Origin: Candidatus Magasanikiibacteriota bacterium
GTDB taxonomy: Bacteria > Patescibacteriota > Patescibacteriia > Magasanikbacterales > UBA922
Direction of reading: 5' to 3'
Length of the DNA: 64,000 nt
NCBI GenBank assembly: GCA_049287025.1
Contig: JBAQFA010000009.1
Span: 24,802 to 88,801 of the forward strand
The translations under genes and the position numbers were made by a program. This document shows, in pieces, positions 5,006 through 60,698 of this stretch; the stretch's first letter is position 1; every line of letters starts with the position of its first letter. Below the pieces are notes generated by a model. It did not search any database. It was not told the origin of the DNA and saw only the letters and a program-made list of their open reading frames with translations.

Positions 5006-5400
5006 AGTTCCTTCAAAATATAGATATGTTCGATTCGACTTTGTCGAATGGAGCATGTTTCCATCCACTGCTTTTTTACTAGGCTAACTCTTATGAATTT
5101 GTATAAAGTAATCTATACAAATTCCTTAAAACAAAAACAAAAGTTAAAAATGAGAGTAAAAGCTAGCCTAGACAGGTGACTCCCACCTTTCATGCATCAA
5201 GGGCTTCACAGCCACACTTGATGTCGGGAGCAAACACCGCCGAGTGGTGGAGGGAATTATACCGTCCCAGTATGACGGCTTGCCTAATCGGGCGTTCTAA
5301 GAGCTTAAAAATTTGAGATCTTGGATTGCCCGAGTGGCGCGTTTCTGGGATTTAAAGGTGGCACGCCACAAAATCACCGGGGCGATTGACCACCTTTTTT
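5006..5400 (+). ncRNA. Candidate structured non-coding RNA of unknown class
   Basis: This is a promoter-to-terminator unit with no ORF. The 3' half (about 5160-5400) is locally GC-rich, with hairpins accgtc/gacggt (5261-5278) and gtgg/ccac. The closing stem aaaggtgg...ccaccttt is followed by a T-run at 5394-5401. Confidence 0.35.
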
Positions 5401-5560
5401 TATTGCAAAAATACAGACTTACAAATAATCCGACTTAACGGGTGCCAAGCCATATGGATTGGGTTGAGTATTTAAATGTTGACTTTTAATTAACATATGA
5501 TATAATGACGTTCTTATAAATATGTGGTAAAATAAAAGCATATTTTGATTAAATACATAT

Positions 5561-5947
5561 ATGACCAAGACTAAATTTACAAAGACTTTTTTGGATGAAA
5601 TAAAGAAAAATTTATTAGAAGAGAAAATTCATCTGGAATCAGAATTAGAAAAATTTGCCAAGAAAAATTCTCATGCTGAGAATGATTATGATACCACTTT
5701 TCCAGAGTACGGTGATGAAGAGGATGAAAATGCTCGCGAAGTAGCTGATTATACGGCCAATAAACCACTAGAAATTTCTTTGGAAAATACTTTGCGTGAT
5801 GTGGTCAAATCTTTAAAAAGATTGGAAGATAATACTTATGGTTTTTGTAAGTATTGTGATAATCCAATTGAAGAAAAAAGATTATTGGCTCGTCCGACTT
5901 CTAGCGCGTGTGTAAGTTGTAAAAAAACACTAACACAAGAGGCTTAA
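5561..5947 (+). CDS. DksA/TraR-family C4 zinc-finger protein
   Basis: 128 aa with a coiled-coil N-terminus. The C-terminal zinc finger reads CKYCDNPI...ACVSCKK. A TTGACT / TGaTATAAT promoter lies at 5479-5506. Confidence 0.8.
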   Translation: MTKTKFTKTFLDEIKKNLLEEKIHLESELEKFAKKNSHAENDYDTTFPEYGDEEDENAREVADYTANKPLEISLENTLRDVVKSLKRLEDNTYGFCKYCDNPIEEKRLLARPTSSACVSCKKTLTQEA

Positions 5948-5997
5948 AGTAATCACGAATGCCATACGAATTAAACTAATTAATCACGAATTGTGAT

Positions 5998-6471
5998 TTG
6001 TATATGAAAAATAAAATCCACCTAACAATTTATATTGTAATCGGTGGATTTTTTTTATTGTTGGATCAGTTGTTAAAATATTTGGCGCGGACTAATTCTG
6101 ATTTTAGTTTTTATCTTTGGAAAAATTGGTTGGGCTGGGAATATTTCCCCAATCCTGGCATTGCTTTTTCTTTACCCGTACCAAATTGGTTAGTAGTTAT
6201 TTTTACGCCAATAATTTTATTAGGATTATTTATTTGGATAAGACGAACACATAACACATATCACATATCACATATCACAAGACAGTTATCACTATTTTTT
6301 ATTATTGCTGGGGCGGTTTCAAATTACATTGATCGCGTATTATTCGGTGTCACTATAGATTATATTCGTATTCTTACTGGGGTAATAAATTTGGCGGATG
6401 TGATGATTGTGGTGGGGGTAGGGTTGTTATTGTTGGATGAAAGATTGAAGAAAATTAATATTAAACTTTAA
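5998..6471 (+). CDS. lspA: Lipoprotein signal peptidase (signal peptidase II)
   Basis: It has four TM segments and the motifs NPGIAFS and IDYI...NLADVMI. The start is probably the ATG at 6004. Confidence 0.85.
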   Translation: MYMKNKIHLTIYIVIGGFFLLLDQLLKYLARTNSDFSFYLWKNWLGWEYFPNPGIAFSLPVPNWLVVIFTPIILLGLFIWIRRTHNTYHISHITRQLSLFFIIAGAVSNYIDRVLFGVTIDYIRILTGVINLADVMIVVGVGLLLLDERLKKINIKL

Positions 6472-6475
6472 TTAT

Positions 6476-7015
6476 ATGATAGAAAATAGTAAATTATTTT
6501 TTTTGATTTTAATTCTGTTTTTAGTTGGGGTTGGCTGCGTAAGTGTTCAGCAGAATACAATAGGTGAAGGTTCTGGTGGTAAAATGGATAACGAGATTGC
6601 AGAGACTAATGCACAGCTAGGAGGAAAAGAAGAGAGTGTTTCTTCTCTTCAAGATTATTCGTATGGTTGTAAAAAACGTTTAGGTGATAATAGTCATATG
6701 AATGAACAAACAGGAAAATGTGAGTGTGATGATGGACATGTCTTCAGTATCGAAGAACCTATTAAGTGTATATCAGCGAATGATTATTGCATATTTTTGA
6801 AAGGAAAGAATTCTATTTCTAATCTAAATGGAGAAAAATATGATTGTATGTGTAAGGATGGTTATAAGATAGATTTAAGTTTGTCACCGAAGTGTATTAT
6901 AGACTGTTCCCCAATAAATGGTGTGATTGCCACAGAAGATTTGTGTGCTTGTCCTAATAATTATGACTATGACTATGGTGTAAGCAAATGTATGCCGATT
7001 GATGATTTAAAATAG
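6476..7015 (+). CDS. Cys-rich secreted lipoprotein, function unknown
   Basis: It has a signal peptide with the lipobox LVGVGC and repeated CxC / C...C spacing. I recognise no family. Confidence 0.55.
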   Translation: MIENSKLFFLILILFLVGVGCVSVQQNTIGEGSGGKMDNEIAETNAQLGGKEESVSSLQDYSYGCKKRLGDNSHMNEQTGKCECDDGHVFSIEEPIKCISANDYCIFLKGKNSISNLNGEKYDCMCKDGYKIDLSLSPKCIIDCSPINGVIATEDLCACPNNYDYDYGVSKCMPIDDLK

Positions 7016-7040
7016 GTTAATTGAGAAATTAAAAAATAAA

Positions 7041-7065
7041 ATCACCTAGGTTCAGGTGATTTTTG
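7041..7065 (+). terminator. Intrinsic terminator
   Basis: The stem atcacct/aggtgat is followed by tttt. Confidence 0.7.
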
Positions 7066-7155
7066 TTATCTGATATCTGCACAATGTGGTATAATAAATG
7101 TAATTTTTAATGTGGGCGAACGCAACTTGAAAAGGGATTCTTCGCTTCGCTCAGA

Positions 7156-8688
7156 ATGACAGACGATATGTTTACCAAAATAAATTCCGCGGCCACTCTG
7201 GGTTTGGAATGTGAACCAATAATTGTTGAAACAGATATTTCCCCGACTTTTCAAGGTTTCCAGATTATTGGGTTACCTGATATGGCGATCCAGGAAGCTA
7301 AAGAAAGAATTAGAACAGTATGGCGAAACAGTGGTCTTACTTTTCCCAATGGCCATCGCATTTTAGTTAATTTGGCGCCAGCGGATGTTCGCAAAGAAGG
7401 CTCGGCGTTTGATTTACCCATTGCCGTGGGTATGTTTACAGCCAAAGAAGGATTAGAAATAAATTTATCTGATTGTCTTTTTATTGGGGAATTGGCTCTA
7501 GATGGGAGTCTGCGTCATACCAATGGAATACTTCCTTTAGCAATTCACGCCAAAGATCGGGGTTATAAAAAAATCTTTGTGCCAGCGGTGAATGCGCGTG
7601 AAGCATCTCTCATAAAAGAAATTGAAGTTTATCCGGTAGAAAATTTTCAACAAATGATTGCGCATTTATTAGGTAATGAATTGATAATTAAACAAGAACC
7701 ACAACCTTTGACTGATTTATTTGTAGTTAGAGAAATAGAAATGGATATGGCTTATATCAAAGGCCAGGAATTTGCCAAGCGCGCTTTGGAAGTGGCCGCG
7801 AGTGGAGCACACAATATTTTATTAAATGGTCCGCCAGGGTCAGGCAAAACTTTATTGGCTAGAAGTTTACCATCAATTTTACCGCCCATGACAGAAGAGG
7901 AAGCCATTGAAGTGACCAAGATTTATTCGGTAGCGGGATTGTTGCCCCATGATCAGCCATTAATTACTGAACGGCCGTTTCGTTCACCGCATCATAGTGC
8001 GAGCGCCATGTCTCTGGTTGGTGGAGGAAAATTTCCTCGGCCAGGAGAAATTTCTTTGGCTCACCGCGGAGTTTTATTTCTTGATGAGTTTACCGAGTTT
8101 CCTAGAATTGTTTTGGAAAATTTACGCCAGCCGTTAGAAGATGGTTTTGTGACCATTGCTCGCGTGCAAAGTACGATTTCTTATCCCGCGCAATTTACTT
8201 TGGTGGCCTCACAAAATCCTTGTCCATGTGGTTATGCCACAGATCCAGATAAGCGGTGTATATGTAGCCCAATGCAAGTAGCCAATTATCAAAAGAAAAT
8301 TAGTGGGCCAATGCTTGATCGAATTGATCTTCATGTAGAAGTACCGCGCGTGGAATTTGAAAAGTTATCCAAAGATAGTTTAGCCGAGTCTTCGGCAGAA
8401 ATTCGCCTGCGAGTAGAAGAAGCCCGTGATCGACAAACTGTAAGGTTTAAAAATTGTTCAGCCAAGACAAATAGTGAAATGAAAAATAAAGAAATAAAAG
8501 AATTTTGTAAATTGGATGAACAATCACTTGATTTATTGCGTCAAGCAGTTCAGCATATGCATTTGTCAGCGCGGAGTTATCATCGGATTTTAAAATTAGC
8601 GCGAACGATTGCTGACCTGTCTAAAAGTGATAATATTTTACAAACGCATGTGGCCGAGGCTCTGCAATATCGGGCAAAAGTTGATTGA
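7156..8688 (+). CDS. comM: YifB/ComM-family Mg-chelatase-like AAA+ protein
   Basis: 510 aa with an N-terminal Lon-protease-like domain. Walker A is GPPGSGKT and Walker B is VLFLDEF. The C-terminal Mg-chelatase subunit ChlI-like region is present. The real start may be the ATG at 7168. Confidence 0.9.
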   Translation: MTDDMFTKINSAATLGLECEPIIVETDISPTFQGFQIIGLPDMAIQEAKERIRTVWRNSGLTFPNGHRILVNLAPADVRKEGSAFDLPIAVGMFTAKEGLEINLSDCLFIGELALDGSLRHTNGILPLAIHAKDRGYKKIFVPAVNAREASLIKEIEVYPVENFQQMIAHLLGNELIIKQEPQPLTDLFVVREIEMDMAYIKGQEFAKRALEVAASGAHNILLNGPPGSGKTLLARSLPSILPPMTEEEAIEVTKIYSVAGLLPHDQPLITERPFRSPHHSASAMSLVGGGKFPRPGEISLAHRGVLFLDEFTEFPRIVLENLRQPLEDGFVTIARVQSTISYPAQFTLVASQNPCPCGYATDPDKRCICSPMQVANYQKKISGPMLDRIDLHVEVPRVEFEKLSKDSLAESSAEIRLRVEEARDRQTVRFKNCSAKTNSEMKNKEIKEFCKLDEQSLDLLRQAVQHMHLSARSYHRILKLARTIADLSKSDNILQTHVAEALQYRAKVD

Positions 8689-30254: not shown

Positions 30255-31049
30255 TTATTTTTTCTTTTTGGCAAGTTGAGAGAGTGGTACGGCCGTATTC
30301 CAAGCTAGTTCATATAGCGCTTTTAGAATTTTTACCAAAGATGTACTTTCTATCATTACACCAATTTTGTGTGGTTTATGAGTGACGAAGACAATTTTTG
30401 ATTCAAAAATATTAATTTCACCAAAAAAGTCCTCAATTCCTGGTAGTTGATTAGGTTTAAGCCATTTAATATGAGTATAAGTCATTGATCCTTTATAATT
30501 CGTCATCCAAGTTCTAGCTGTAGGTGTATCCAAAGCAATAATACGTTCATGAATTTTACGTTTACTGCGTTCACGATTATAGCCTTCACCCCAAGTTTTG
30601 AATTCCGGCCAACTCCAGCCTTCAAAATCGGCAATAGAAAGAATTTCGGTTTTTGAATCTAAGCTCTCCCAATAAATATTTTTTAAACCCTGGGTACCTT
30701 CTTGATATTTGATAACTGGCTTTTCGGCAAACTTATAAATCGAAAATAATTTTGGTAAAACTTTTTCTACATTTAATAATTTATCTTCCCATTGCTTTTT
30801 TTTGTTTTTAATATGTTGAACCAGACGCCCTGGATTTTCCGAAGTATAAATCATTTTCGATCCTTTGCCAGTCGCGCGATCTACCAAACCATACCAACCT
30901 AACTTTTCCAAAGCATAATAACCAAGCGTTCGGTTGATACCAGCTTTTTTGGTTATCTCGGCTACAGTAGCAGGACCAAGTTCGAGCAAGGCTAAATATA
31001 CTTTGCCTTCGGTTTCATCTAAACCTAATTGACTGATTAAATCTTTCAT
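30255..31049 (-). CDS. TrmB-family wHTH transcriptional regulator (paralog 3)
   Basis: LGLDETEGKVYLALLELGPATVAEITKKAGINRTLGYYALEKLGWYGLV. It is clearly homologous along its full length to the ORFs 31929..32732 and 48975..49763. Confidence 0.85.
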   Translation of the reverse strand: MKDLISQLGLDETEGKVYLALLELGPATVAEITKKAGINRTLGYYALEKLGWYGLVDRATGKGSKMIYTSENPGRLVQHIKNKKKQWEDKLLNVEKVLPKLFSIYKFAEKPVIKYQEGTQGLKNIYWESLDSKTEILSIADFEGWSWPEFKTWGEGYNRERSKRKIHERIIALDTPTARTWMTNYKGSMTYTHIKWLKPNQLPGIEDFFGEINIFESKIVFVTHKPHKIGVMIESTSLVKILKALYELAWNTAVPLSQLAKKKK

Positions 31050-31164
31050 GTTTTTATTCTACTATATATTTGGAAATGTGTCAAATCTATTTAACAGAAA
31101 ATTATTTATATAGCAAAATACTTTATAATTAGCCAAATATTAATAATTAACTAATAAAACAATA

Positions 31165-49908: not shown

Positions 49909-52900
49909 ATGAAATATAAAATGCCTGTCCGCAATGTATTTCGCATTTTAGCGAATAAAGGCGGGTCTGTCATAATATCCATATTTTTTGTTATGGGTAT
50001 TTTTTTAATTATCAATTTAGCACGATCGGAAAATACTGATATTGTGATAAATGAAATTTGCCCCACCGGTTGTGCCGTGTCTGGTCACCAGTGGATTGAA
50101 ATATATAATAAAGGGGATGTTGCGGTTGATTTGAGTGGTTGGAAATTTTGGGAAGGAGAAACAAACCATGGATTAGATATTTCATCATCTAGTTTGGAAC
50201 AAGATTTTTTAATTGAACCAGGAGAATATGCCATTATTGCCCAAAATGATTTGTATTTTTTTGAGGATCATCCAGATGTTACATCCACTATATTTGATAG
50301 TTCGTGGGGAACATTGAATAAGGGTGGGGAATTGATTGGAATGAAAGATAATAATGGTGATTTGTTAGAAGAATTTATATATAAAGCAATTAATAATTTT
50401 TCTTTAGAAAGAAAAGATGCTAATGAATTAATTACAGATGAAAATAATTGGCTAGAACATCCAGATAGTAATTCTGTGGGCCAAGTAAATTATTGGAGTG
50501 GGTACACGGATGACACAGGACACGGAGATACGGAAGATGAGGAGGACACGGAAGATGATGGAGATACAGAGGGCGATGATGAAACAACGACATCTACTCC
50601 ACCCATTGCCACTTCAACTGATGCGGTTTTAGTTATAAATGAATTTGTCAGTGATCCAGATGAAGGACAAAATGAGTGGATTGAATTATATAATATTGGC
50701 ACTTCTACTATTGATTTGGATGGTTGGACATTGTCTGATGGAGTTGGAGTGATATCTTCACCAACTGGTACGATTGATGCTAATGGATTTTTTGTGATTG
50801 AATTATCTTCAACCAAACTAAATAATTCTGGAGATATTATAATTTTAAAAAATTTAAATGAAGAAACAGTTGATCAGGTGTGTTTTGGTAATTGGATTGA
50901 AGGTTGTTTACCCGAAGCGACCAGTGCTCCAGACAAAGGCAATTCTATTGCTAGAATTGTTGACGGCGGGGATACAAATAATGATAAAAATGATTGGCAA
51001 GAAACAACTACGCTGACAAAGGGTTTAATTAATATAATTACTGCACCAGTGGTCAATCCACCGCCATCGGGTGGTGGTGGCGGAGGAGGTGGAACAGAAA
51101 TTGTTTATTATAATGCCGGGGAAATTATTATTAATGAAATTAATTCTGATCCAGGCGATGGTGAAGATGAATTTGTTGAATTGTATAATAAAACTAGTGA
51201 TAGTATTAGTTTGGACAATTGGTGGCTAGAAGATGGGAGCGAAACCAAAACAAAATTAAGTGGCAGTATTAATGCTCGTGGTTTTTTTGTAATAGAAAAA
51301 CCGAGTGGCAATCTAAACAATGCTGGAGATTTGTTAGCCTTATTTTCTCCAGATGGTAAAGAAATTGACAAAGTATCTTATGGTACATGGGATGATGGTA
51401 ATATAAATGATAACGCCCCAGCCCCAGAAGATCCATTAAGTCTAGTGCGTAAAGTGGATGGTCAGGATTCGGATAATGATTACTATGATTTTGTTTTAAC
51501 TTCATCTATTACCAAAGGCAAGAGTAATAAAATTTCTGCCGTGTTGGAAGATGGAGAAATTTTGGAACAAATAATTGGTTCTAGTAAAATTATTCTTAAT
51601 GAAATTTTTCCCAATCCAAAAGCGAGTGACAATGATGAAGAATTTATTGAATTAAAAAATATTGGAGAAGAAACAGTGAATCTAAAAGATTGGCAATTGA
51701 GTGATTCAACCGCTAGAAAATATAAAATTACCCAAGGCAGTATTCCGGCTGGTGGTTATATAGTTTTTAAACGCATTATGACGGGTATTGCTCTTAATAA
51801 TACTGGCGGGGAAGAAATAAAATTATTTTTACCTAGTGGTAGTTTGGTTGATAGTGTAAAATATTCTGGTAGTGCAGATGATAATATTTCTTATGCGCAA
51901 CTGGAAGATGGTGGTTGGAAATGGACTACAAAATTAACTCCAGGCAAGGATAATATTATTGAAGGTAAAGCAGCTTTGCCAATAATTTCGATTGATGTAG
52001 ATACAGAAGTGGCTGTAGGTGAGTCAGTGGTTTTTGATGCGTCAGACACGACTGATCCAGATGGTGAGAAGATGACTTTTGTTTGGAATTTTGGTGATGG
52101 CGAAGACGATACTGGTGATGTGGTGGAACATAGTTTTAATACCGAGGGAGTCTATACTGTAATTTTAAATGTGACAAATAAAAATGGAGCAATAGCAGAA
52201 AAGAAAATAATTATTACGGTAAAAAATAAATTAAGTTTTGTGGGTGGTTATTATCAAGCTGATGATGTAAGTAAGATTGAAATTTCAGAAATTTTACCCA
52301 ATCCTATAGGCAGTGATACTACGGAATTTGTTGAATTGTATAATCCGACTGATAAGGATATTGATTTGGGTGGAATAAAAATTGATGATGAAGAAGGTGG
52401 TTCACGTGCTTATACTATTCCAGATAAGACAATTATTCCTGCCGGTGTTTATCTAGTATTCGGTCGACAAGATACAAAACTAGCCTTGAATAATACGAGT
52501 GATTCAGTTCGTTTATTATATCCAGATGGGACAATTTTTAAAGAAGTAAGATTTGATGATGTGTCTGAAGGGGCAAGTTATATCCAAGATGAGAATGATA
52601 GTTGGCAATGGACAAGCGCAATTACTCCTGGTGAAGAAAATATTGATACTTTGGTAGTGGAAAAGGCAACTACTAGAACACTGAGTAAATCAAAAGGAAT
52701 AAAACCAATAATTAATACCACTTTGGAAAAATTGCGCGATGAAGATATTGGTGACAAAGTAAGAGTGACTGGGGTCGTGGCTGTAGAACCAGGAGTTTTG
52801 GCTTCACAGTATTTTTACATTGTCGGTTCACCAGGCGTACAGGTGTATATGTACAAAAAAGATTTCCCTGATTTAAAAGTGGGAGATAGGATTGAAATTA

Positions 52901-53469
52901 GTGGAGAAATTTCCGAGAGTTATGGTAATACCAGAATAAAATTAGCCAGCAAAGATGATATTAAAAAGATTGATCACCCGGGTGATCCAGAGCCATTGAT
53001 AGTGGAAGTGGCCGATGTGCAAGAACAGATGGAAGGCTGGCTCGTGCAAGTGAGTGGAGAAGTTACAGAAATAAAAGGTTCATATATGTATGTGGACGAT
53101 GGGACTGAGGAGGTACAAGTTTATTTTAAACGTGGAGCCAATATTAATAAAAAGATTTATCAAGTGGGGGATATAGTAAATGTAAAAGGTTTGGTGGCAC
53201 AAACAAAAGCGGGGTATCAGATTTTACCACGGTCGCAAAGTGATATAGAAAAAACAGGCGTAGCCGAAGATGCTGTGATCCAGATTGCGGCGAGTGAAGA
53301 AGAAGGAAAAAAAGAAGTAGCGGAAAAATATTTAACAGCTACGGCTGGTGGATTGACTTCACTTTTGTTTGGTTTGTTTGCCAAAGCACGAGGAAAAATG
53401 GCTTTGGGTTTTGTAAAAAAAGTTGGCGTGGTGGCAGTGGATGTCATAAAGAGGAGGACGAAAGGGTAA
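49909..53469 (+). CDS. Giant surface protein: multiple lamin-tail-domain (LTD)-like repeats + PKD-like domain + OB-fold-like region + C-terminal TM anchor
   Basis: There are five repeats of the pattern (V/I)INE(I/F)...EF(I/V)ELYN...(I/V)(D/S)L.GW.L.D. The PKD-like segment is FDASDTTDPDGEKMTFVWNFGDG. A poly-Gly linker is present, and N- and C-terminal hydrophobic segments flank the protein. Confidence 0.75.
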   Translation: MKYKMPVRNVFRILANKGGSVIISIFFVMGIFLIINLARSENTDIVINEICPTGCAVSGHQWIEIYNKGDVAVDLSGWKFWEGETNHGLDISSSSLEQDFLIEPGEYAIIAQNDLYFFEDHPDVTSTIFDSSWGTLNKGGELIGMKDNNGDLLEEFIYKAINNFSLERKDANELITDENNWLEHPDSNSVGQVNYWSGYTDDTGHGDTEDEEDTEDDGDTEGDDETTTSTPPIATSTDAVLVINEFVSDPDEGQNEWIELYNIGTSTIDLDGWTLSDGVGVISSPTGTIDANGFFVIELSSTKLNNSGDIIILKNLNEETVDQVCFGNWIEGCLPEATSAPDKGNSIARIVDGGDTNNDKNDWQETTTLTKGLINIITAPVVNPPPSGGGGGGGGTEIVYYNAGEIIINEINSDPGDGEDEFVELYNKTSDSISLDNWWLEDGSETKTKLSGSINARGFFVIEKPSGNLNNAGDLLALFSPDGKEIDKVSYGTWDDGNINDNAPAPEDPLSLVRKVDGQDSDNDYYDFVLTSSITKGKSNKISAVLEDGEILEQIIGSSKIILNEIFPNPKASDNDEEFIELKNIGEETVNLKDWQLSDSTARKYKITQGSIPAGGYIVFKRIMTGIALNNTGGEEIKLFLPSGSLVDSVKYSGSADDNISYAQLEDGGWKWTTKLTPGKDNIIEGKAALPIISIDVDTEVAVGESVVFDASDTTDPDGEKMTFVWNFGDGEDDTGDVVEHSFNTEGVYTVILNVTNKNGAIAEKKIIITVKNKLSFVGGYYQADDVSKIEISEILPNPIGSDTTEFVELYNPTDKDIDLGGIKIDDEEGGSRAYTIPDKTIIPAGVYLVFGRQDTKLALNNTSDSVRLLYPDGTIFKEVRFDDVSEGASYIQDENDSWQWTSAITPGEENIDTLVVEKATTRTLSKSKGIKPIINTTLEKLRDEDIGDKVRVTGVVAVEPGVLASQYFYIVGSPGVQVYMYKKDFPDLKVGDRIEISGEISESYGNTRIKLASKDDIKKIDHPGDPEPLIVEVADVQEQMEGWLVQVSGEVTEIKGSYMYVDDGTEEVQVYFKRGANINKKIYQVGDIVNVKGLVAQTKAGYQILPRSQSDIEKTGVAEDAVIQIAASEEEGKKEVAEKYLTATAGGLTSLLFGLFAKARGKMALGFVKKVGVVAVDVIKRRTKG

Positions 53470-55317: not shown

Positions 55318-55578
55318 AAAAGTTGTAAAGTTAAAAGTTATAAAGTTTCTAAAGTAAAAAAATTACCTCTAAACATAGAGGTAATTTTTTATTGACATTG
55401 TCGACCTGTAGATACTATACTTGAACTATATAATAATGTACTAAATAACTTGGAGTTGGTGACTAAATGGAATACTTCAGTTAAAGATTTTTGCAAACAA
55501 GAGATCAGGACTAACACACTTGCTTTTAGATAAAAAGTGGCTTAAAATAGGGTTATATAATGTTTAATCACTTAAAAT

Positions 55579-55761
55579 ATGAACTCACAAGACACTTATA
55601 GCCAAAAAGACAACCACACAGATGTTGCCGAAACACTACCAAATACTAACAACACACCAAGTGATAACCAACCAACAAACAGCCCAAACCAGCAAGTGGT
55701 GGCAAATGACGGAACTACTGTAACTTTAGGCCAAAATGGCCATTCTCATAAGACCAAATAA
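55579..55761 (+). CDS. Small low-complexity (N/T/Q/P-rich) ORF, doubtful
   Basis: 60 aa. I recognise no family and see no RBS. Confidence 0.25.
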   Translation: MNSQDTYSQKDNHTDVAETLPNTNNTPSDNQPTNSPNQQVVANDGTTVTLGQNGHSHKTK

Positions 55762-55813
55762 CTATAGGGCGATTTTCATTGAACTGTAGTTAATATAATA
55801 ATACTATAGTTCT

Positions 55814-56224
55814 ATGATTGATAATCAAACAAAAGAGAAATTCATCGAATTAAGAGCACAAGGAAAAAGTTATAACACAATCTCTAAAGAGATTGGTGTA
55901 AGCAAACCCACACTTATTCAGTGGAGTAGAGAGTTTGTGGACGAAATTTCCAATCTTAAAGCAATAGAATTTGAAGATTTACAAGAAAAGTATTATATAC
56001 ACAAAAGAAAAAGAATAGAAATTTTTGGCACACAACTGGAAGCCATAAAGCAGGAACTTTCTTCAAGAGATCTAAAAACAATTTCAACTGAAAGGCTTTT
56101 GGATTTATTGGCTAAATTTACGACGGTATTGAAAGCAGAAGAAACAACTATAAACTTTACTACAAAAGTCAGTCCCGTTGATGATTATTTAGATCTATCA
56201 GTTGTAAAAAATTGGATTGGATAA
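55814..56224 (+). CDS. HTH-domain protein (resolvase/terminase-small-subunit-like HTH)
   Basis: FIELRAQGKSYNTISKEIGVSKPTLIQWSREF is a typical three-helix HTH. A coiled coil follows. Confidence 0.55.
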   Translation: MIDNQTKEKFIELRAQGKSYNTISKEIGVSKPTLIQWSREFVDEISNLKAIEFEDLQEKYYIHKRKRIEIFGTQLEAIKQELSSRDLKTISTERLLDLLAKFTTVLKAEETTINFTTKVSPVDDYLDLSVVKNWIG

Positions 56225-56341
56225 AATATTACCAAAACTTTACTATTTTTTGACCGAGATATTCAAAGAAAGTATATATTGCTTTTATCTCGTTTTTATG
56301 ATAATATAGCGGTACTAAACATTCAGTAGACTTATAATTTT

Positions 56342-57085
56342 ATGAGTAATAAATATAACAAAAATTTCATTGGAAAGGTTGCTTTTCGTTTAGATTTCTC
56401 CGAAAATGTTGCAATTGGTTCATTGAAAGATCTTCATGAAGAAATAAATGATGTTTTTTCAATAAAAGAAGAAAAAGAGAGTGTGACAGGGTTTGTTCAA
56501 TTAGATTTTAAGAGCGGTGAAATGAGAAATGAAACTGAAAAAATGGCTTCTTGGTTATTTAGCAATACAGAAAAAAATAAAAGAATGGAAATAAATTCGA
56601 GATTTTTGTATTTAGAATATGATAAATACAATGAAAAAACTGAACTATTTGACGATATAAAAAATGTAGTTCAAAAATTCATATCAAAATATAATATAAA
56701 AACTTTTAATCGTATTGGTTTAAGATTTATAAACGAAATAAAGTTACAAGAAAGTGAGCAACTGGATTGGACTAAATATATTGACAAAAACCTAATTGCT
56801 AATCTTATTTTTGTTAAAGATCAAAATAAAAAATTAGCTCGTGCAATGAGTGCCTTAGTTTTCAAAGAAGAAAAAGGTGATATAAATTTTAATTTTGGTA
56901 TTTGGAATAGTGAGTATCCAAACGAGGTTAACAGAAAGGAATTTGTATTAGACTATGATTGTTTTTCAAATTTAGGAATTTCTGATGATGAAGTTTTAGA
57001 ACGCACAGAGCAGTTTCATTCATATATTGAAAAACTATTTGAAGCAAGTATAACGGAAGAATTTAGAGGATTGTTAAATAAATAA
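56342..57085 (+). CDS. Hypothetical protein (possibly TIGR04255-like)
   Basis: 247 aa. The N-terminal ...KVAFRLDF and overall size recall the TIGR04255 family. This is not verifiable here. Confidence 0.45.
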   Translation: MSNKYNKNFIGKVAFRLDFSENVAIGSLKDLHEEINDVFSIKEEKESVTGFVQLDFKSGEMRNETEKMASWLFSNTEKNKRMEINSRFLYLEYDKYNEKTELFDDIKNVVQKFISKYNIKTFNRIGLRFINEIKLQESEQLDWTKYIDKNLIANLIFVKDQNKKLARAMSALVFKEEKGDINFNFGIWNSEYPNEVNRKEFVLDYDCFSNLGISDDEVLERTEQFHSYIEKLFEASITEEFRGLLNK

Positions 57086-57088
57086 AAT

Positions 57089-57289
57089 ATGAATAATAAT
57101 TACTCGCAACAGTCTGCCCAGACAGCAGGTTCAAATGACTCTGGTTATTTTGCAAAACAAAATAATTCTACAGTAACGAGTGATTATATAACTAAAACCA
57201 AGGAAACAGCTGAATTTGTAGTTGTTAATGGTTCAGGTTATTCACAAAGACAGGCAAGAATTGTGAAAAGTAAATATGTTAGAAAGTAA
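57089..57289 (+). CDS. Small hypothetical protein
   Basis: 66 aa, tightly packed between neighbours and overlapping the next ORF by 14 nt. Confidence 0.35.
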   Translation: MNNNYSQQSAQTAGSNDSGYFAKQNNSTVTSDYITKTKETAEFVVVNGSGYSQRQARIVKSKYVRK

Positions 57290-57854
57290 TATTAAATCTT
57301 TTTATAAAAAACACAGCAAGGAGCGATTTTGCCAAGGTGATATTTTGAGAGATGTAAAAGTTTCAATTGACATTCCAATCGAATGGCAACAATCAGAGGG
57401 TAATACCACAGATTATGATTTACCGTATTGTGTTATTATGACACAAGATTGTGACTTGGATAGAGATTTCGAAAGTAAAAAAGGTGAAAAACTCACAAAC
57501 AACGACAAACATTTACCGACAATTTTAGTTTGTCCAGCATATCGTGATCTTCCTTTTTATGAGGGTAAACATCTTGTAGGCTGGAAAATGCAGGAATACA
57601 AAGGCAAGGCATTAGAAAAAATACAAAAAAACGATGAAATAAACAGGTGCCACTTTCTAAAAGGTGACAGTACCTTACAAATACCAAATCTTGTAATTGA
57701 CTTCAAACATTTCTACACATTGCCAACAAGTATACTTTATGAACAATACAACGATATTTATTTAGCAACTATAAATGAATTATTCAGAGAGAGGCTATCA
57801 CAACGTTTCGCTAATTATTTATCGAGATTTGGTTTGCCAGAATTAAAATCATAG
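57276..57854 (+). CDS. Hypothetical protein with a CVIMTQDCDLDRD motif
   Basis: 192 aa. I recognise no family with confidence. Confidence 0.45.
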   Translation: MLESNIKSFYKKHSKERFCQGDILRDVKVSIDIPIEWQQSEGNTTDYDLPYCVIMTQDCDLDRDFESKKGEKLTNNDKHLPTILVCPAYRDLPFYEGKHLVGWKMQEYKGKALEKIQKNDEINRCHFLKGDSTLQIPNLVIDFKHFYTLPTSILYEQYNDIYLATINELFRERLSQRFANYLSRFGLPELKS

Positions 57855-57910
57855 ATAAAGATTTTATAAAATACGATAATATATAACCAGCTGATAAAGC
57901 TGGTTTATTA

Positions 57911-57939
57911 TTGCTAAATAAACATCAGTATGGTAAAAT
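57911..57939 (+). promoter_or_regulatory. Promoter with extended -10 driving the structured RNA
   Basis: TTGCTA (57911-57916), a 17-nt spacer, then TGgTAAAAT (-10 at 57934-57939). Confidence 0.5.
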
Positions 57940-57945
57940 CATAAT

Positions 57946-58097
57946 GCTAACCCACAACTTAATATACACAAGAATGAATGAGGTTCTCCTCATCTTTTGT
58001 CCGTTTGCGACCAGAGATGGGGTAGCAACCTTCCACAAACGGGCATTCTTGTGTTCGCAAAGTGGGTTAGCAGGTATGCTATCCCTTTTTTGTTTTT
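57946..58097 (+). ncRNA. Riboswitch-like structured RNA / sRNA (unknown class) with overlapping terminator
   Basis: P1 pairs gctaacccac (57946-57955) with gtgggttagc (58062-71). P2 pairs cacaagaatg (57967-76) with cattcttgtg (58044-53). P3 is the hairpin atgagg-ttct-cctcat (57978-93). P4 pairs ccgtttg (58001-07) with caaacgg (58036-42). The terminator gggttagc-aggtat-gctatccc plus a T-run (58064-58096) shares the 3' strand of P1. Confidence 0.55.
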
Positions 58098-58228
58098 AAT
58101 TTAATAAAAGATTACACAGTCTTTTACAATTTTACACAAAAATTGGACAAAATTGGACAAAAATCATTCAAGTTCATACACAAATTACGGGTTTCACATT
58201 AACCCGACTAATTATTAACATAGATTAT

Positions 58229-58744
58229 ATGAAAAAATGTCAGTTTTGTGCTGAAGAAGTGCAAGATGAAGCCATAGTATGTAAACACTGTGGCAAAGAA
58301 TTAAATAAGCAGGCTGTAAAAAAGAAGGAGTATAATTGGACATTTCGCAAAATTAGTTGTGCGGTTATATTAGTCCCAGTAGTCTTGATTTTTGTAATTA
58401 CCATGGCGGGCGGATGCAATAATTCTAAATCAACCCCAACAGATAGTGCATTATCAAACGTGGGCGTTGGACAGGAAGGTTTCTTACGTACGAGTGATAC
58501 TGGTGCGGATGTTTTGTTAGCTACTTCAGAAAAATCATTTGATGATTTAATTAATGCATCGGTTGCAAAAGATACAATTGGTATGGCACAAATTGTCCTT
58601 AATGGTAATGCTTTTTACATCCCTTATAACACAAAAGTATTAGTGATCGAGTCTTCTTTTGCTAAAAGAAAAGTACGTATTTTGGAAGGTGAGAAAGTAG
58701 GCGAAACTGGTTGGATACCCTATGAGTTTGTTGTTGCAAAATAA
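58229..58744 (+). CDS. Zinc-ribbon membrane protein
   Basis: It has an N-terminal CQFCAEEV...CKHCG ribbon, one TM segment and an extracytoplasmic beta-rich (SH3-like?) C-terminus. Confidence 0.55.
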   Translation: MKKCQFCAEEVQDEAIVCKHCGKELNKQAVKKKEYNWTFRKISCAVILVPVVLIFVITMAGGCNNSKSTPTDSALSNVGVGQEGFLRTSDTGADVLLATSEKSFDDLINASVAKDTIGMAQIVLNGNAFYIPYNTKVLVIESSFAKRKVRILEGEKVGETGWIPYEFVVAK

Positions 58745-58804
58745 TGGAAAACAAACAAAAAACCTGCTATATTAATAGTAGGTTTTTTTATTAAAATAAA
58801 TATT

Positions 58805-60442
58805 ATGACAACCACACAAGATTTGTACAAAATGATCGGAACTGCACAACAGCAGGAAGAAGATAAGGATGACGTTTCAAAATATCGATACGTTATTTAT
58901 GCTCGAAAATCTACAGATGATAAAGAAAAACAAATCAGATCATTAGGTGATCAAATTAAAGAATGTAAGGATTATGCTGAAAGAAATGGACTTAGATGTT
59001 TACCGAAACCAATAACGGAGTCAGAGTCTGCCAAGGAACCAGACATAAGGCCAGAGTTTAAGAAATTAATTGATGACATTAAAAAAGCTAAATATGATGG
59101 TATTTTGGCTTGGCATCCAGACCGTTTGGCCAGAAATATGAAGGATGCTGGAGAGATAATAGATCTGTTGGATAAAAAGATAGTGAAAGACCTAAAATTC
59201 GTAACATTTACGTTTGAGAACAATACAATGGGTAAAATGTTGTTAGGGATGGCTTTCGTGCTGTCTAAGCAGTATTCTGACGCTTTAAGTGATAATGTAA
59301 AACGAGGAACAAGTAGAAGTATTGAAGAAGGTAGATGGTTGAACAAAGCTAAACATGGTTATTATAAAGATCGTAATCAAATACTGCATCCAGATGGTAG
59401 ATTTTTTAATCTGATTGAGAATATTTTTAGGATGAGAATAGATAATAAAAGTTTGGATGATATAGCTGATTATTTGAATGAAAATAGATATTGTTGTGCC
59501 CCACCTTCTAAGAATGAAGCTGACCGTAGCCCATTTCAAATGACCAAACAGATCGTCTCTAAAATTGTGAGAGACCCATTTTACACTGGCATTCTTAAGT
59601 ATGGAGAAAACAAGGTTGATTTAACTGAAATTTATGACTTTACTCCTGCTGTAAGTGTGGATGATTTTCTGAAAATAAACAACTTTTCTGATATTGAAAA
59701 AGCTCTAAAATTAACTGGAAAAATTTATAAAGACAACGCAATCAAGGCAGATTTGATGAGAGGAATGATAATTTGTGGTGAATGTGATGGAAGTATGACA
59801 TCTGGAATTACTCCTAAAAAAACAAAAAATGGTAAAACTAATTATTTTTATTACAGATGTGATAACCCTGTTTGTAAAAATAAAGGTAAGTCTATAAGGG
59901 CAAAAGTAATTATTGACTTTGCCTGTCAATATTTGGAAAAAAACAAATTTACCTCTCATTCTATATATGGGCATTATATCCAAGAAATGAAAAAAGTTGT
60001 AATGGAAAAAGAGAGGTCTCTCATACAAAAAATTCGTTCATTGACGGAGACCAGAGTACACAAAAAAAATCAATTTGAAAAGACAAAAAAATCTCTTATA
60101 CAAGAGACTGACGAAGACATCAAGGGTTTTTTTAAGGAAGATTTGAAACAATTAGAAAAGGACATCAATAATTTAGAAACCGAAATAGATGAATTGAAAG
60201 ATGAGAAAGAAAGAAATAATAGCGTCACGCTGACTTACTCAGAATACCTTGAACTGTTCAATAATTTAGCTGAGCGTATTAAAAAAATAGGCGTTATGGA
60301 AGACCTAAATTTTATAATGAAAAAAATCTTCTTGAACTTTACTATAAAAGAGGGAAAAGTGGCTCTATATACACTAAACTCCCCATTCGGGGAGTTCGTG
60401 AAAGACCGTATTGTCTTGACATGTCGGGGTGAAAGGACTTGA
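58805..60442 (+). CDS. Large serine recombinase (resolvase/invertase N-domain + recombinase domain + zinc ribbon + coiled coil)
   Basis: The catalytic-Ser region is YVIYARKSTDDKEKQIRSLGDQ. WHPDRLARN is present. The Cys4 cluster is CGECDG...YYRCDNPVC. The C-terminal coiled coil is long. Confidence 0.85.
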   Translation: MTTTQDLYKMIGTAQQQEEDKDDVSKYRYVIYARKSTDDKEKQIRSLGDQIKECKDYAERNGLRCLPKPITESESAKEPDIRPEFKKLIDDIKKAKYDGILAWHPDRLARNMKDAGEIIDLLDKKIVKDLKFVTFTFENNTMGKMLLGMAFVLSKQYSDALSDNVKRGTSRSIEEGRWLNKAKHGYYKDRNQILHPDGRFFNLIENIFRMRIDNKSLDDIADYLNENRYCCAPPSKNEADRSPFQMTKQIVSKIVRDPFYTGILKYGENKVDLTEIYDFTPAVSVDDFLKINNFSDIEKALKLTGKIYKDNAIKADLMRGMIICGECDGSMTSGITPKKTKNGKTNYFYYRCDNPVCKNKGKSIRAKVIIDFACQYLEKNKFTSHSIYGHYIQEMKKVVMEKERSLIQKIRSLTETRVHKKNQFEKTKKSLIQETDEDIKGFFKEDLKQLEKDINNLETEIDELKDEKERNNSVTLTYSEYLELFNNLAERIKKIGVMEDLNFIMKKIFLNFTIKEGKVALYTLNSPFGEFVKDRIVLTCRGERT

Positions 60443-60497
60443 ACCTTCGGCCTCCTGGTCCCAAACCAGGCGCTCTAGCCAACTGAGCTACACCCCG
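60424..60497 (-). tRNA. tRNA-Pro (TGG)
   Basis: The reverse complement reads cggggtg-ta-gctcagttggctagagc-g-cctgg-ttTGGga-ccagg-...gaaggttcaagtccttt-caccccg-a. Confidence 0.9.
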
Positions 60498-60541
60498 TTA
60501 AAGTTATAAAGTTGAAAGTTTTAAAGTTCAAAAAAATAACT

Positions 60542-60616
60542 TGGTGCCGAGGGCCAGGATCGAACTGGCGACACGTGGATTTTCAGTCCACTGCTCTACC
60601 ACTGAGCTACCTCGGC
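60542..60616 (-). tRNA. tRNA-Phe (GAA), CCA encoded
   Basis: The reverse complement reads gccgagg-ta-gctcagtggtagagc-a-gtgga-ctGAAaa-tccac-gtgtc-gccagttcgatcctggc-cctcggc-acca. Confidence 0.9.
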
Positions 60617-60624
60617 TTGTTTTG

Positions 60625-60698
60625 TGGACCTGAGGAGATTCGAACTCCTGACCCCCTGCTTGCAAAGCAGGTGCTCTAGCCAGCTGAGCTACAGGCCC
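60625..60698 (-). tRNA. tRNA-Ala (TGC)
   Basis: The reverse complement reads gggcctg-ta-gctcagctggctagagc-a-cctgc-ttTGCaa-gcagg-...caggagttcgaatctcct-caggtcc-a, with G3:U70. Confidence 0.9.

Follow-up and report, generated by a model that had tools for sequence, protein, structure and literature searches.

A serine-recombinase island at tRNA-Pro in a Candidatus Magasanikbacteria genome and its putatively toxin–antitoxin-like three-gene cargo

Islands and prophages inserted by large serine recombinases (LSRs), such as phiC31, Bxb1, A118 and the ccr-encoding SCCmec elements, have in common a three-domain recombinase with a coiled-coil region, a terminally placed integrase gene, a short core shared by the two junctions and a cargo of accessory genes. 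In one survey, t(m)RNA sites accounted for 4.9 % of serine-integrase elements versus 44.5 % for tyrosine integrases, and the use of such sites by serine integrases was described as previously unreported and in need of proof (PMC7192596). The element described here shares the above features, with a putative coiled coil. It is an island of approximately 5.0 kb inserted immediately 3' of tRNA-Pro(TGG) at positions 55392–60426 of a 64,000-nt stretch (hereafter the window) of the genome of Candidatus Magasanikbacteria, an uncultured, groundwater-type member of the Candidate Phyla Radiation (CPR). Its cargo includes three genes (the trio) encoding a 247-aa protein of the TIGR04255 family, a small protein of 66 aa and a 192-aa protein referred to as p192. 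The reading favoured here, with a probability of roughly 0.6, is that this LSR-inserted island carries a new tripartite toxin–antitoxin (TA) or abortive-infection-like module.

Several described systems resemble this cargo in part. In MazEF, Kid-Kis and CcdAB, which are carried on mobile elements, a small gene lies immediately upstream of the toxin gene and overlaps its start, while in tripartite TA systems (toxin–antitoxin–chaperone, paaR-paaA-parE and omega-epsilon-zeta) three genes are co-transcribed and a third protein controls the toxin/antitoxin pair. In type III TA systems (ToxIN, CptIN and AbiQ), a toxin with a related fold is paired with a structured RNA whose gene adjoins that of the toxin. 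Additionally, a MazF-like domain has been validated as an anti-phage effector in type II Gabija, which consists of GajB and the MazF-like GajC (PMC13069673).

The limits of the island were established by comparison with related genomes (coordinates are given in Table 1). An unoccupied site is preserved in a relative (L024), in which a Kef-type antiporter gene, its terminator, tRNA-Pro(-), tRNA-Phe(-), tRNA-Ala(-) and MgtC(+) are arranged without an island, with 58 bp between the antiporter stop codon and the tRNA compared with approximately 5 kb in the window. In the closest relative (L003), whose antiporter protein is 88 % identical to that of the window, the DNA is approximately 92 % identical through the antiporter terminator up to position 55403 and unrelated beyond; since the two sequences are collinear to this position and then continue into different DNA, a different insert occupies the same point in L003. 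The antiporter has 63 relatives in Magasanikbacteria and other Patescibacteria, and island genes were found next to it in none of these 63 loci. The host terminator of the antiporter gene stops just ahead of the left junction, and an imperfect direct repeat of 11–12 nt, TTGACAT(T)GTCG, lies exactly at both junctions, its copies sharing a 7-nt block (TTGACAT) and a 4-nt block (GTCG). Of the tRNA, the repeat takes in just the final 3 nt and not a long segment. Its positions at 55392 and 60416–60426 set the length of the island at approximately 5.0 kb, and the crossover must fall within it. The element thus shows the features of other tRNA-associated integrative islands: a relative with the site unoccupied, a direct repeat at each end, a terminal integrase gene and a tRNA that remains intact. 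An earlier note on this DNA, made from the sequence alone, had proposed an element integrated at a tRNA that heads a Pro, Phe and Ala cluster; the empty site in L024, the L003 breakpoint and the intact recombinase uphold the former, ARAGORN confirms the latter, and the junction repeat supplies the attL and attR sites whose definition the note had suggested.

The recombinase encoded at the right end of the island is intact. Its N-terminal catalytic domain matches Resolvase (PF00239, 9.5e-25, residues 30–178) and is followed by C-terminal Recombinase (PF07508, 1.8e-10) and zinc-ribbon (Zn_ribbon_recom, PF13408, 6.3e-07) domains, the arrangement expected of an LSR, and weak coiled-coil-type matches extend over residues 395–500. 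The YARKST motif, the R/D/G positions and the active-site region are conserved with three relatives, and the zinc-ribbon cysteines C324, C327 and C352 are invariant among them. The stop codon (60440–60442) lies 19–20 nt inside the 3' end of tRNA-Pro on the opposite strand, an overlap of about 19 nt having already been observed in the earlier note and now confirmed with ARAGORN and Rfam, and past the junction repeat the antisense strand of the tRNA gene provides the final 6–7 codons and the stop codon. Because the attachment site is located inside the 3' end of the LSR gene, the terminal codons are host-encoded when the element is integrated and island-encoded when it is circular: the C-terminus ends in ...VLTCRGERT in the integrated form and in ...VLTLSTCRYYT when the island ends are joined. 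The reconstructed attP formed by these ends contains CCGTATTGTCTTGACATTGTCGACCTGTAG (longer stretch, CCGTATTGTCTTGACATTGTCGACCTGTAGATAC), and the reconstructed attB reads GGTAATTTTTTATTGACATGTCGGGGTGAAAGG.

The overlap between the LSR gene and the tRNA goes beyond chance, since the LSR genes of three related loci (L013, L029 and L086) also enter tRNA 3' ends. The four recombinases are 24–32 % identical and have unrelated C-terminal tails, and no close LSR relatives were found in viral contigs. L086 is a second island in which a tRNA-overlapping LSR is paired with a trio composed of a TIGR04255 protein, a small protein and a MazF-fold protein; the cargo of L013 and L029 differs from that of the window island. 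Unlike the described LSR islands and prophages, the element targets the extreme 3' end of a tRNA, it has an attachment site within the 3' coding end of the recombinase, so that the C-terminal tail changes on integration, and it is a very small element (approximately 5 kb) in a CPR genome. It is added to the serine-integrase islands as a new member whose target is uncommon. Taken together, these loci provide four computational cases of serine integrases at tRNA 3' ends, a usage considered rare and unproven for this enzyme class, and such LSRs could be a source of new, compact integrases directed at conserved tRNA targets, for use in engineering CPR bacteria or other hosts.

Other sequences around the junctions were considered as well. 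The 8-mer ACTTGAAC, suggested in the earlier note as a possible core and placed there at 55409–55416, is actually located at 55419–55426 and had to be abandoned as the crossover core: it lies 15 nt (attL) or 10 nt (attR) inward of the junction repeat TTGACAT(T)GTCG, off both junctions, and its recurrence is that expected by chance (three copies in the window versus 2.3 expected). Its interpretation as a recognition motif of the zinc-ribbon domain, an idea built on the model of the A118 integrase, found no statistical support either. It had been considered because the 8-mer of the island arm lies 5 nt further out than that of the tRNA arm and because GAAC occurs at an equal offset in L003. The only role that can be assigned to it is that its TGA serves as the recombinase stop codon in both the integrated and the reconstructed circular forms. 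Two AAAGTT-rich 43-nt blocks (55326–55368 and 60499–60541), which are 72 % alike and constitute the sole such pair in the window, flank the island and tRNA-Pro; they were rejected as island ends, the left block being host sequence common to L003 and the right one the native Phe-Pro spacer.

The same DNA is also present on the NCBI contig JBAQOB010000046.1 (GCA_049304355.1, Candidatus Magasanikiibacteriota) and in the Logan run SRR28062879, whose island-bearing contig (L002) ends inside the AAAGTT-rich Phe-Pro spacer, at the equivalent of window position ~60528, which may reflect a repeat or population heterogeneity at the site. The Ala-Phe-Pro tRNA cluster (60423–60698) is inverted in the window, L024, L009 and L004 with respect to most relatives (L005–L012, L022, L028 and L064 were compared), in which the order on the antiporter strand is Ala, Phe, Pro. 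In L004 (11778–11880), two truncated copies of the tRNA-Pro 3' end (GTCGGAGTGA...) are located ahead of the intact gene and resemble scars left here by earlier insertion or excision events.

The three-gene linkage within the cargo is strict, and the trio constitutes a fixed module. More than 550 homologues of p192 were identified (2019 clusters at 50 % identity with E ≤ 1e-3, and 1010 with E ≤ 1e-10) in CPR bacteria, Sulfuriflexus, Thermotogota, Methanosarcinaceae and ANME-2 (anaerobic methanotrophic archaea), and none was found in the GenBank phage collection. The linkage was counted in 82 non-redundant loci encoding a p192 homologue, derived from bacteria, archaea and a few viral contigs. 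Wherever 470 nt or more of sequence is available upstream, the p192 gene is preceded on the same strand by a gene for a TIGR04255 homologue, at a distance of approximately 100–270 nt in most loci and abutting the p192 gene in two. The gap contains a small open reading frame (ORF), conserved only in a C-terminal Y-x-K-T...basic motif, the stop codon of which overlaps the start of the next gene; it was detected by script in 79 of the 82 loci and by eye in one more (L124). In a viral contig (L157, 5845–6576), the small ORF and p192 form a single reading frame, with the small ORF product at the N-terminal end, and the TIGR04255 gene overlaps the start of the fusion. The overlapping stop and start codons that the earlier note ascribed to the trio apply in the window to the 66-aa/192-aa pair only (14 nt), the 247-aa and 66-aa genes being 3 nt apart.

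The surroundings of the trio vary, its neighbours being unrelated in CPR bacteria, Gammaproteobacteria, Methanosarcinaceae and a Methylocystis plasmid. The commonest families among 140 neighbouring proteins were Phage_integrase (5), N6_N4 methylase (3), ResIII (3) and DDE transposase (3), and the PADLOC models matched by neighbours include type II/III methylases, MADS genes, AriA-like ATPases and a type I restriction enzyme. On plasmid NZ_CP143318.1 of the cultured Methylocystis iwaonis SD4 (L160, 27528–31075), the trio directly follows a small serine recombinase, an 'abortive infection family protein' and WGR-domain fragments; this copy, with its p192 gene at 30497–31075, makes the trio directly testable in a cultured organism. 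In L066, where the trio and the small RNA that follows it are 71 % identical to the window at the DNA level, the island encodes a type III restriction–modification (RM) system and its integrase is a tyrosine recombinase, which indicates that the cargo moves between islands with different integrases. Sporadic spread and mobile or defence neighbours form the pattern of a selfish or defence module rather than that of core RNA metabolism.

The best-conserved member of the trio is p192, which shares 50 % identity with the Methanosarcinaceae copy, as opposed to 28 % for the faster-evolving TIGR04255 protein. The AlphaFold model of p192 is confident (pLDDT 88) and predicts an SH3-like barrel with a C-terminal helix, as in the MazF/PemK/CcdB fold; fold searches matched MazF, CcdB, Kid and CptN over 94–110 aligned residues. 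The invariant residues comprise Q20-G21-D22, Q57-x-C59-D60, H99, R124, D142-F-K144 and three arginines in the C-terminal helix, and they suggest an enzyme with an active site other than that of MazF. A PD-(D/E)xK nuclease, prompted by the invariant D...DFK, was also considered for p192 and was given no support by the fold search.

The 247-aa protein is a full-length member of TIGR04255 (98.6 bits against a cut-off of 30, model positions 1–251 of 252), an NCBIfam family that is mentioned nowhere in the literature searched. Its model (pLDDT 92.9) contains two predicted beta-alpha-beta4-alpha repeats with a topology like that of the TATA-binding protein (TBP) domain; structural neighbours are weak and mixed, with giant-virus TBPs at E ~5e-4. 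The small protein is a candidate antitoxin-like neutraliser. In comparison with MazEF, Kid-Kis and CcdAB, the module shows no detectable sequence similarity and has different invariant residues, p192 is approximately 80 residues longer and has a conserved C-terminal helix, the small partner is basic, mostly unconserved and devoid of a DNA-binding domain, and a third gene, encoding the TIGR04255 protein, is obligatory. The third component differs from that of known tripartite TA systems in being neither a SecB-like chaperone nor a classical repressor, and is instead a protein of 247 aa for which a two-repeat, TBP-like fold is predicted and whose invariant residues are enzyme-like. The architecture of type II Gabija is not homologous to that of the trio, the partner of its MazF-like protein being a UvrD-type helicase, with neither a TIGR04255 protein nor a small ORF present.

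A small RNA (sRNA) encoded directly downstream of the trio confirms the structured RNA that had been proposed for the island: it folds with z = -6.25, and none of 200 shuffled sequences folded as well. L066 and L073 have a conserved copy at the equivalent position immediately behind the trio, with an identity above that of the coding sequence. RNAalifold predicts 42 pairs, of which four show compensatory changes (in an alignment of three sequences only), and the invariant blocks CCGUUUG and CAAACGG could form a pseudoknot. No Rfam family matched the sRNA, a covariance model retrieved no further copy from the other 92 trio loci, 63 Magasanikbacteria loci or the rest of the window, and a core-motif search of viral contigs was empty; nor was conserved complementarity to the trio mRNA or to an antisense target in the island detected. 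As the sRNA was found only with the three closest trio versions, it is regarded as a lineage-specific companion of the trio and not as a universal component.

The mechanism proposed for the island is as follows. Its own LSR would insert the element 3' of tRNA-Pro(TGG), with the crossover somewhere within TTGACAT(T)GTCG. Within the trio, p192 would be the effector and arrest growth, most likely as an RNA-directed nuclease; the small protein, whose translation is coupled to that of p192, would keep it inactive, and the fast-evolving TIGR04255 protein is presumably a sensing or regulatory partner. Such a module would stabilize the island and may protect against phage. In this sub-lineage, the module is accompanied by the sRNA, which has its own promoter. 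If the trio is a toxin or defence system, its combination of a TBP-like partner and a MazF-fold effector would be a new architecture and would provide a function for the orphan family TIGR04255. The trio is represented by approximately 2,000 sequence clusters in bacteria, archaea and some viral contigs, two of its members lack a Pfam family, and the literature searched makes no reference to it.

Several observations weigh against this interpretation. Neither PemK/CcdB nor any other Pfam family was matched by any of 52 family members, a p192 profile search of PDB sequences found nothing, and hhalign of p192 against MazF, EndoA and Kid sequences gave a probability of 0.2. Searches with p192 and the 247-aa protein (NCBIfam, PHROGs, PADLOC, PDB profiles, and Pfam on all members) yielded no identifying link for p192 and, TIGR04255 apart, none for the 247-aa protein, PHROGs giving one weak, function-less match. 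The PADLOC comparison suggested in the earlier note was likewise negative, as PADLOC-DB v2.0.0 has no model matching the 247-aa, 66-aa or 192-aa protein at E ≤ 0.1. The relationship of p192 to MazF is thus at the level of the fold only, and because no similarity to that family is seen at the sequence level, the trio is classified as a new variant of toxin/defence module outside the MazEF family. The invariant residues of p192, which include several Asp as well as His, are unlike the Arg/Thr active site of MazF, and the beta1-beta2 loop, catalytic in MazF, is variable in p192 and modelled with low confidence. The small protein, with a C-terminus that is basic and not acidic and without a DNA-binding fold, is unlike MazE-type antitoxins. 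Defence genes are a minority among the trio neighbours, and the Methanosarcinaceae trio sits between housekeeping genes. As regards the island itself, the reconstructed attP shows no significant dyad symmetry, that of attB is not above background, and neither an excised circle nor a same-strain empty site was observed, so that current mobility is not shown. The claim of the earlier note that the trio looks like a defence or abortive-infection operon is plausible and unproven: the module is mobile and sporadic, its best-conserved member has a predicted MazF/CcdB fold, and it is sometimes found beside RM, MADS or abortive infection (Abi) genes, and it has no PADLOC match. No ordinary metabolic family fits the trio.

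The principal alternative is that the trio is a non-toxic nucleic-acid-handling module, such as an RNA-processing or regulatory complex, which in this lineage could act on the sRNA. TBP-like folds commonly bind nucleic acids, and the dissimilarity of p192 to MazF in sequence and invariant residues, the linkage of the sRNA to the trio in three loci and the housekeeping surroundings in Methanosarcinaceae all fit such a role. It is nevertheless considered unlikely, since the other ~90 trio loci lack the sRNA, no complementarity between it and the trio mRNA is conserved, and the trio is scattered over two domains of life among unrelated neighbours that frequently include integrases, transposases, RM and Abi genes. 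Pairing of p192 with the downstream sRNA as a type III (ToxIN/CptIN-like) system, in which the RNA neutralizes an endoribonuclease, would explain why a conserved structured RNA with its own promoter adjoins the gene. In type III systems, however, a tandem-repeat RNA lies upstream of the toxin gene and always accompanies it, whereas the RNA described here is downstream, non-repetitive, present in a single copy and confined to one sub-lineage, only the three closest of ~95 trio loci possessing it; the universal companions of p192 are proteins, namely the TIGR04255 protein and the small ORF product. The restriction to one lineage and the single-copy downstream layout argue against a type III system, which is regarded as very improbable.

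Alternatively, a larger prophage or satellite could have left the island behind as an immobile remnant, in which case the recombinase/tRNA overlap would be a leftover and the cargo genes decaying passengers. Family searches of its approximately 5 kb revealed no replication, capsid or transfer genes, its helix-turn-helix protein (HTH136) has weak small-terminase-like PHROG matches, the truncated tRNA-Pro copies in L004 could be scars of old events, and the lack of an observed circular form or same-strain empty site would also be expected of a remnant. Against this, all ORFs are intact and tightly packed, the recombinase retains its three domains and conserved residues, the junction repeat has remained intact, purifying selection on the trio is clear from hundreds of loci, and turnover at the site is indicated by the different insert that L003 carries at exactly this point; a remnant is accordingly judged improbable, less so than a type III system and more so than a non-toxic module. 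Beyond the preferred reading of an LSR-inserted island with a TA-like or abortive-infection-like module, it is tentatively proposed, with more doubt than confidence, that the trio is an unrecognized tripartite immune or addiction system, common to bacteria and archaea, with a TBP-like sensor and a new MazF-barrel enzyme, and that trio-carrying CPR LSRs form a tRNA-targeting lineage with the attachment site within the recombinase gene; the integration-driven swap of the C-terminal tail could then act as a built-in directionality switch.

Table 1. Features of the island and its insertion site (window coordinates) and of tRNA-overlapping LSR genes in other loci (coordinates of the respective locus)
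Feature	Position	Strand	Remarks
Left junction (attL) repeat TTGACATTGTCG	55392-55403	+	L003 breakpoint; 11-12 nt recur at right junction
Best sigma-70-like promoter match in island, TTGACA-18-TATACT	55392-55421	+	11/12 consensus positions; consensus match only
60-aa low-complexity ORF (p60)	55579-55761	+	ORF list; gene in NCBI record
136-aa helix-turn-helix protein (HTH136)	55814-56224	+	Weak matches below cut-offs
Trio gene 1, TIGR04255-family protein, 247 aa	56342-57085	+	
Trio gene 2, small protein, 66 aa	57089-57289	+	
Trio gene 3, p192, 192 aa, MazF/CcdB-fold (predicted)	57276-57854	+	
Terminator-like hairpin after trio	57885-57905	+	
Promoter TTGCTA-17-TG-n-TAAAAT	57911-57939	+	Extended -10
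Structured sRNA, ~150 nt, ending in T-run	57944-58094	+	Fold z = -6.25
Zinc-ribbon protein, 171 aa, one hydrophobic helix	58229-58744	+	N-terminal zinc ribbon
Large serine recombinase, 545 aa	58805-60442	+	Pfam domains; PHROG integrase 1e-66
Right junction (attR) repeat TTGACATGTCG	60416-60426	+	Counterpart of 55392-55403, one T fewer; last 3 nt are the tRNA-Pro 3' end
tRNA-Pro(TGG), intact, host target	60423-60497 (ARAGORN); 60424-60497 (Rfam)	-	Rfam, 71.1 bits
tRNA-Phe	60542-60616		After tRNA-Pro; ARAGORN
tRNA-Ala	60624-60698		After tRNA-Pro; ARAGORN
L013 LSR, 544 aa	3025-4680		Overlaps tRNA-Gly(tcc) 3' end by 54 nt, opposite strand; Magasanikbacteria
L029 LSR	6750-8284		Overlaps tRNA-Pro 3' end by 10 nt, opposite strand; Magasanikbacteria
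L086 LSR, 512 aa	Island parts 126-1675, 5070-6570		Overlaps tRNA-Gln(ctg) 3' end by 63 nt

The remaining island genes yielded few assignments. No family match was obtained for p60 in Pfam, NCBIfam, PADLOC and PHROG searches. The matches of HTH136, all below cut-offs, are to HTH_23 (1.5e-4), HTH_Tnp_1 (1.2e-3) and PHROG small-terminase/DNA-binding families (6e-5 to 1e-3), and the protein is a candidate regulator or directionality factor. The 171-aa protein matches Zn_ribbon_3 (7e-5) and Zn_Ribbon_1 (3e-4), both below cut-offs, as well as function-less PHROG families. The sigma-70-like promoter match spans the left junction and reads into the island.

Outside the island, upstream of the antiporter gene, a 1186-aa protein (49909–53469) with repeated modules and a C-terminal membrane anchor is encoded in a position that is syntenic across Magasanikbacteria. 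The sequence TTGGACAAA occurs seven times in the window, at 58143–58161 (two copies in tandem upstream of the zinc-ribbon gene), 77, 18266, 33369, 44060 and 48321, compared with 1.5 copies expected, and none of 100 shuffles reached seven. It is also present twice in the different insert of L003 (12128 and 12867) and may represent a regulator or promoter motif.

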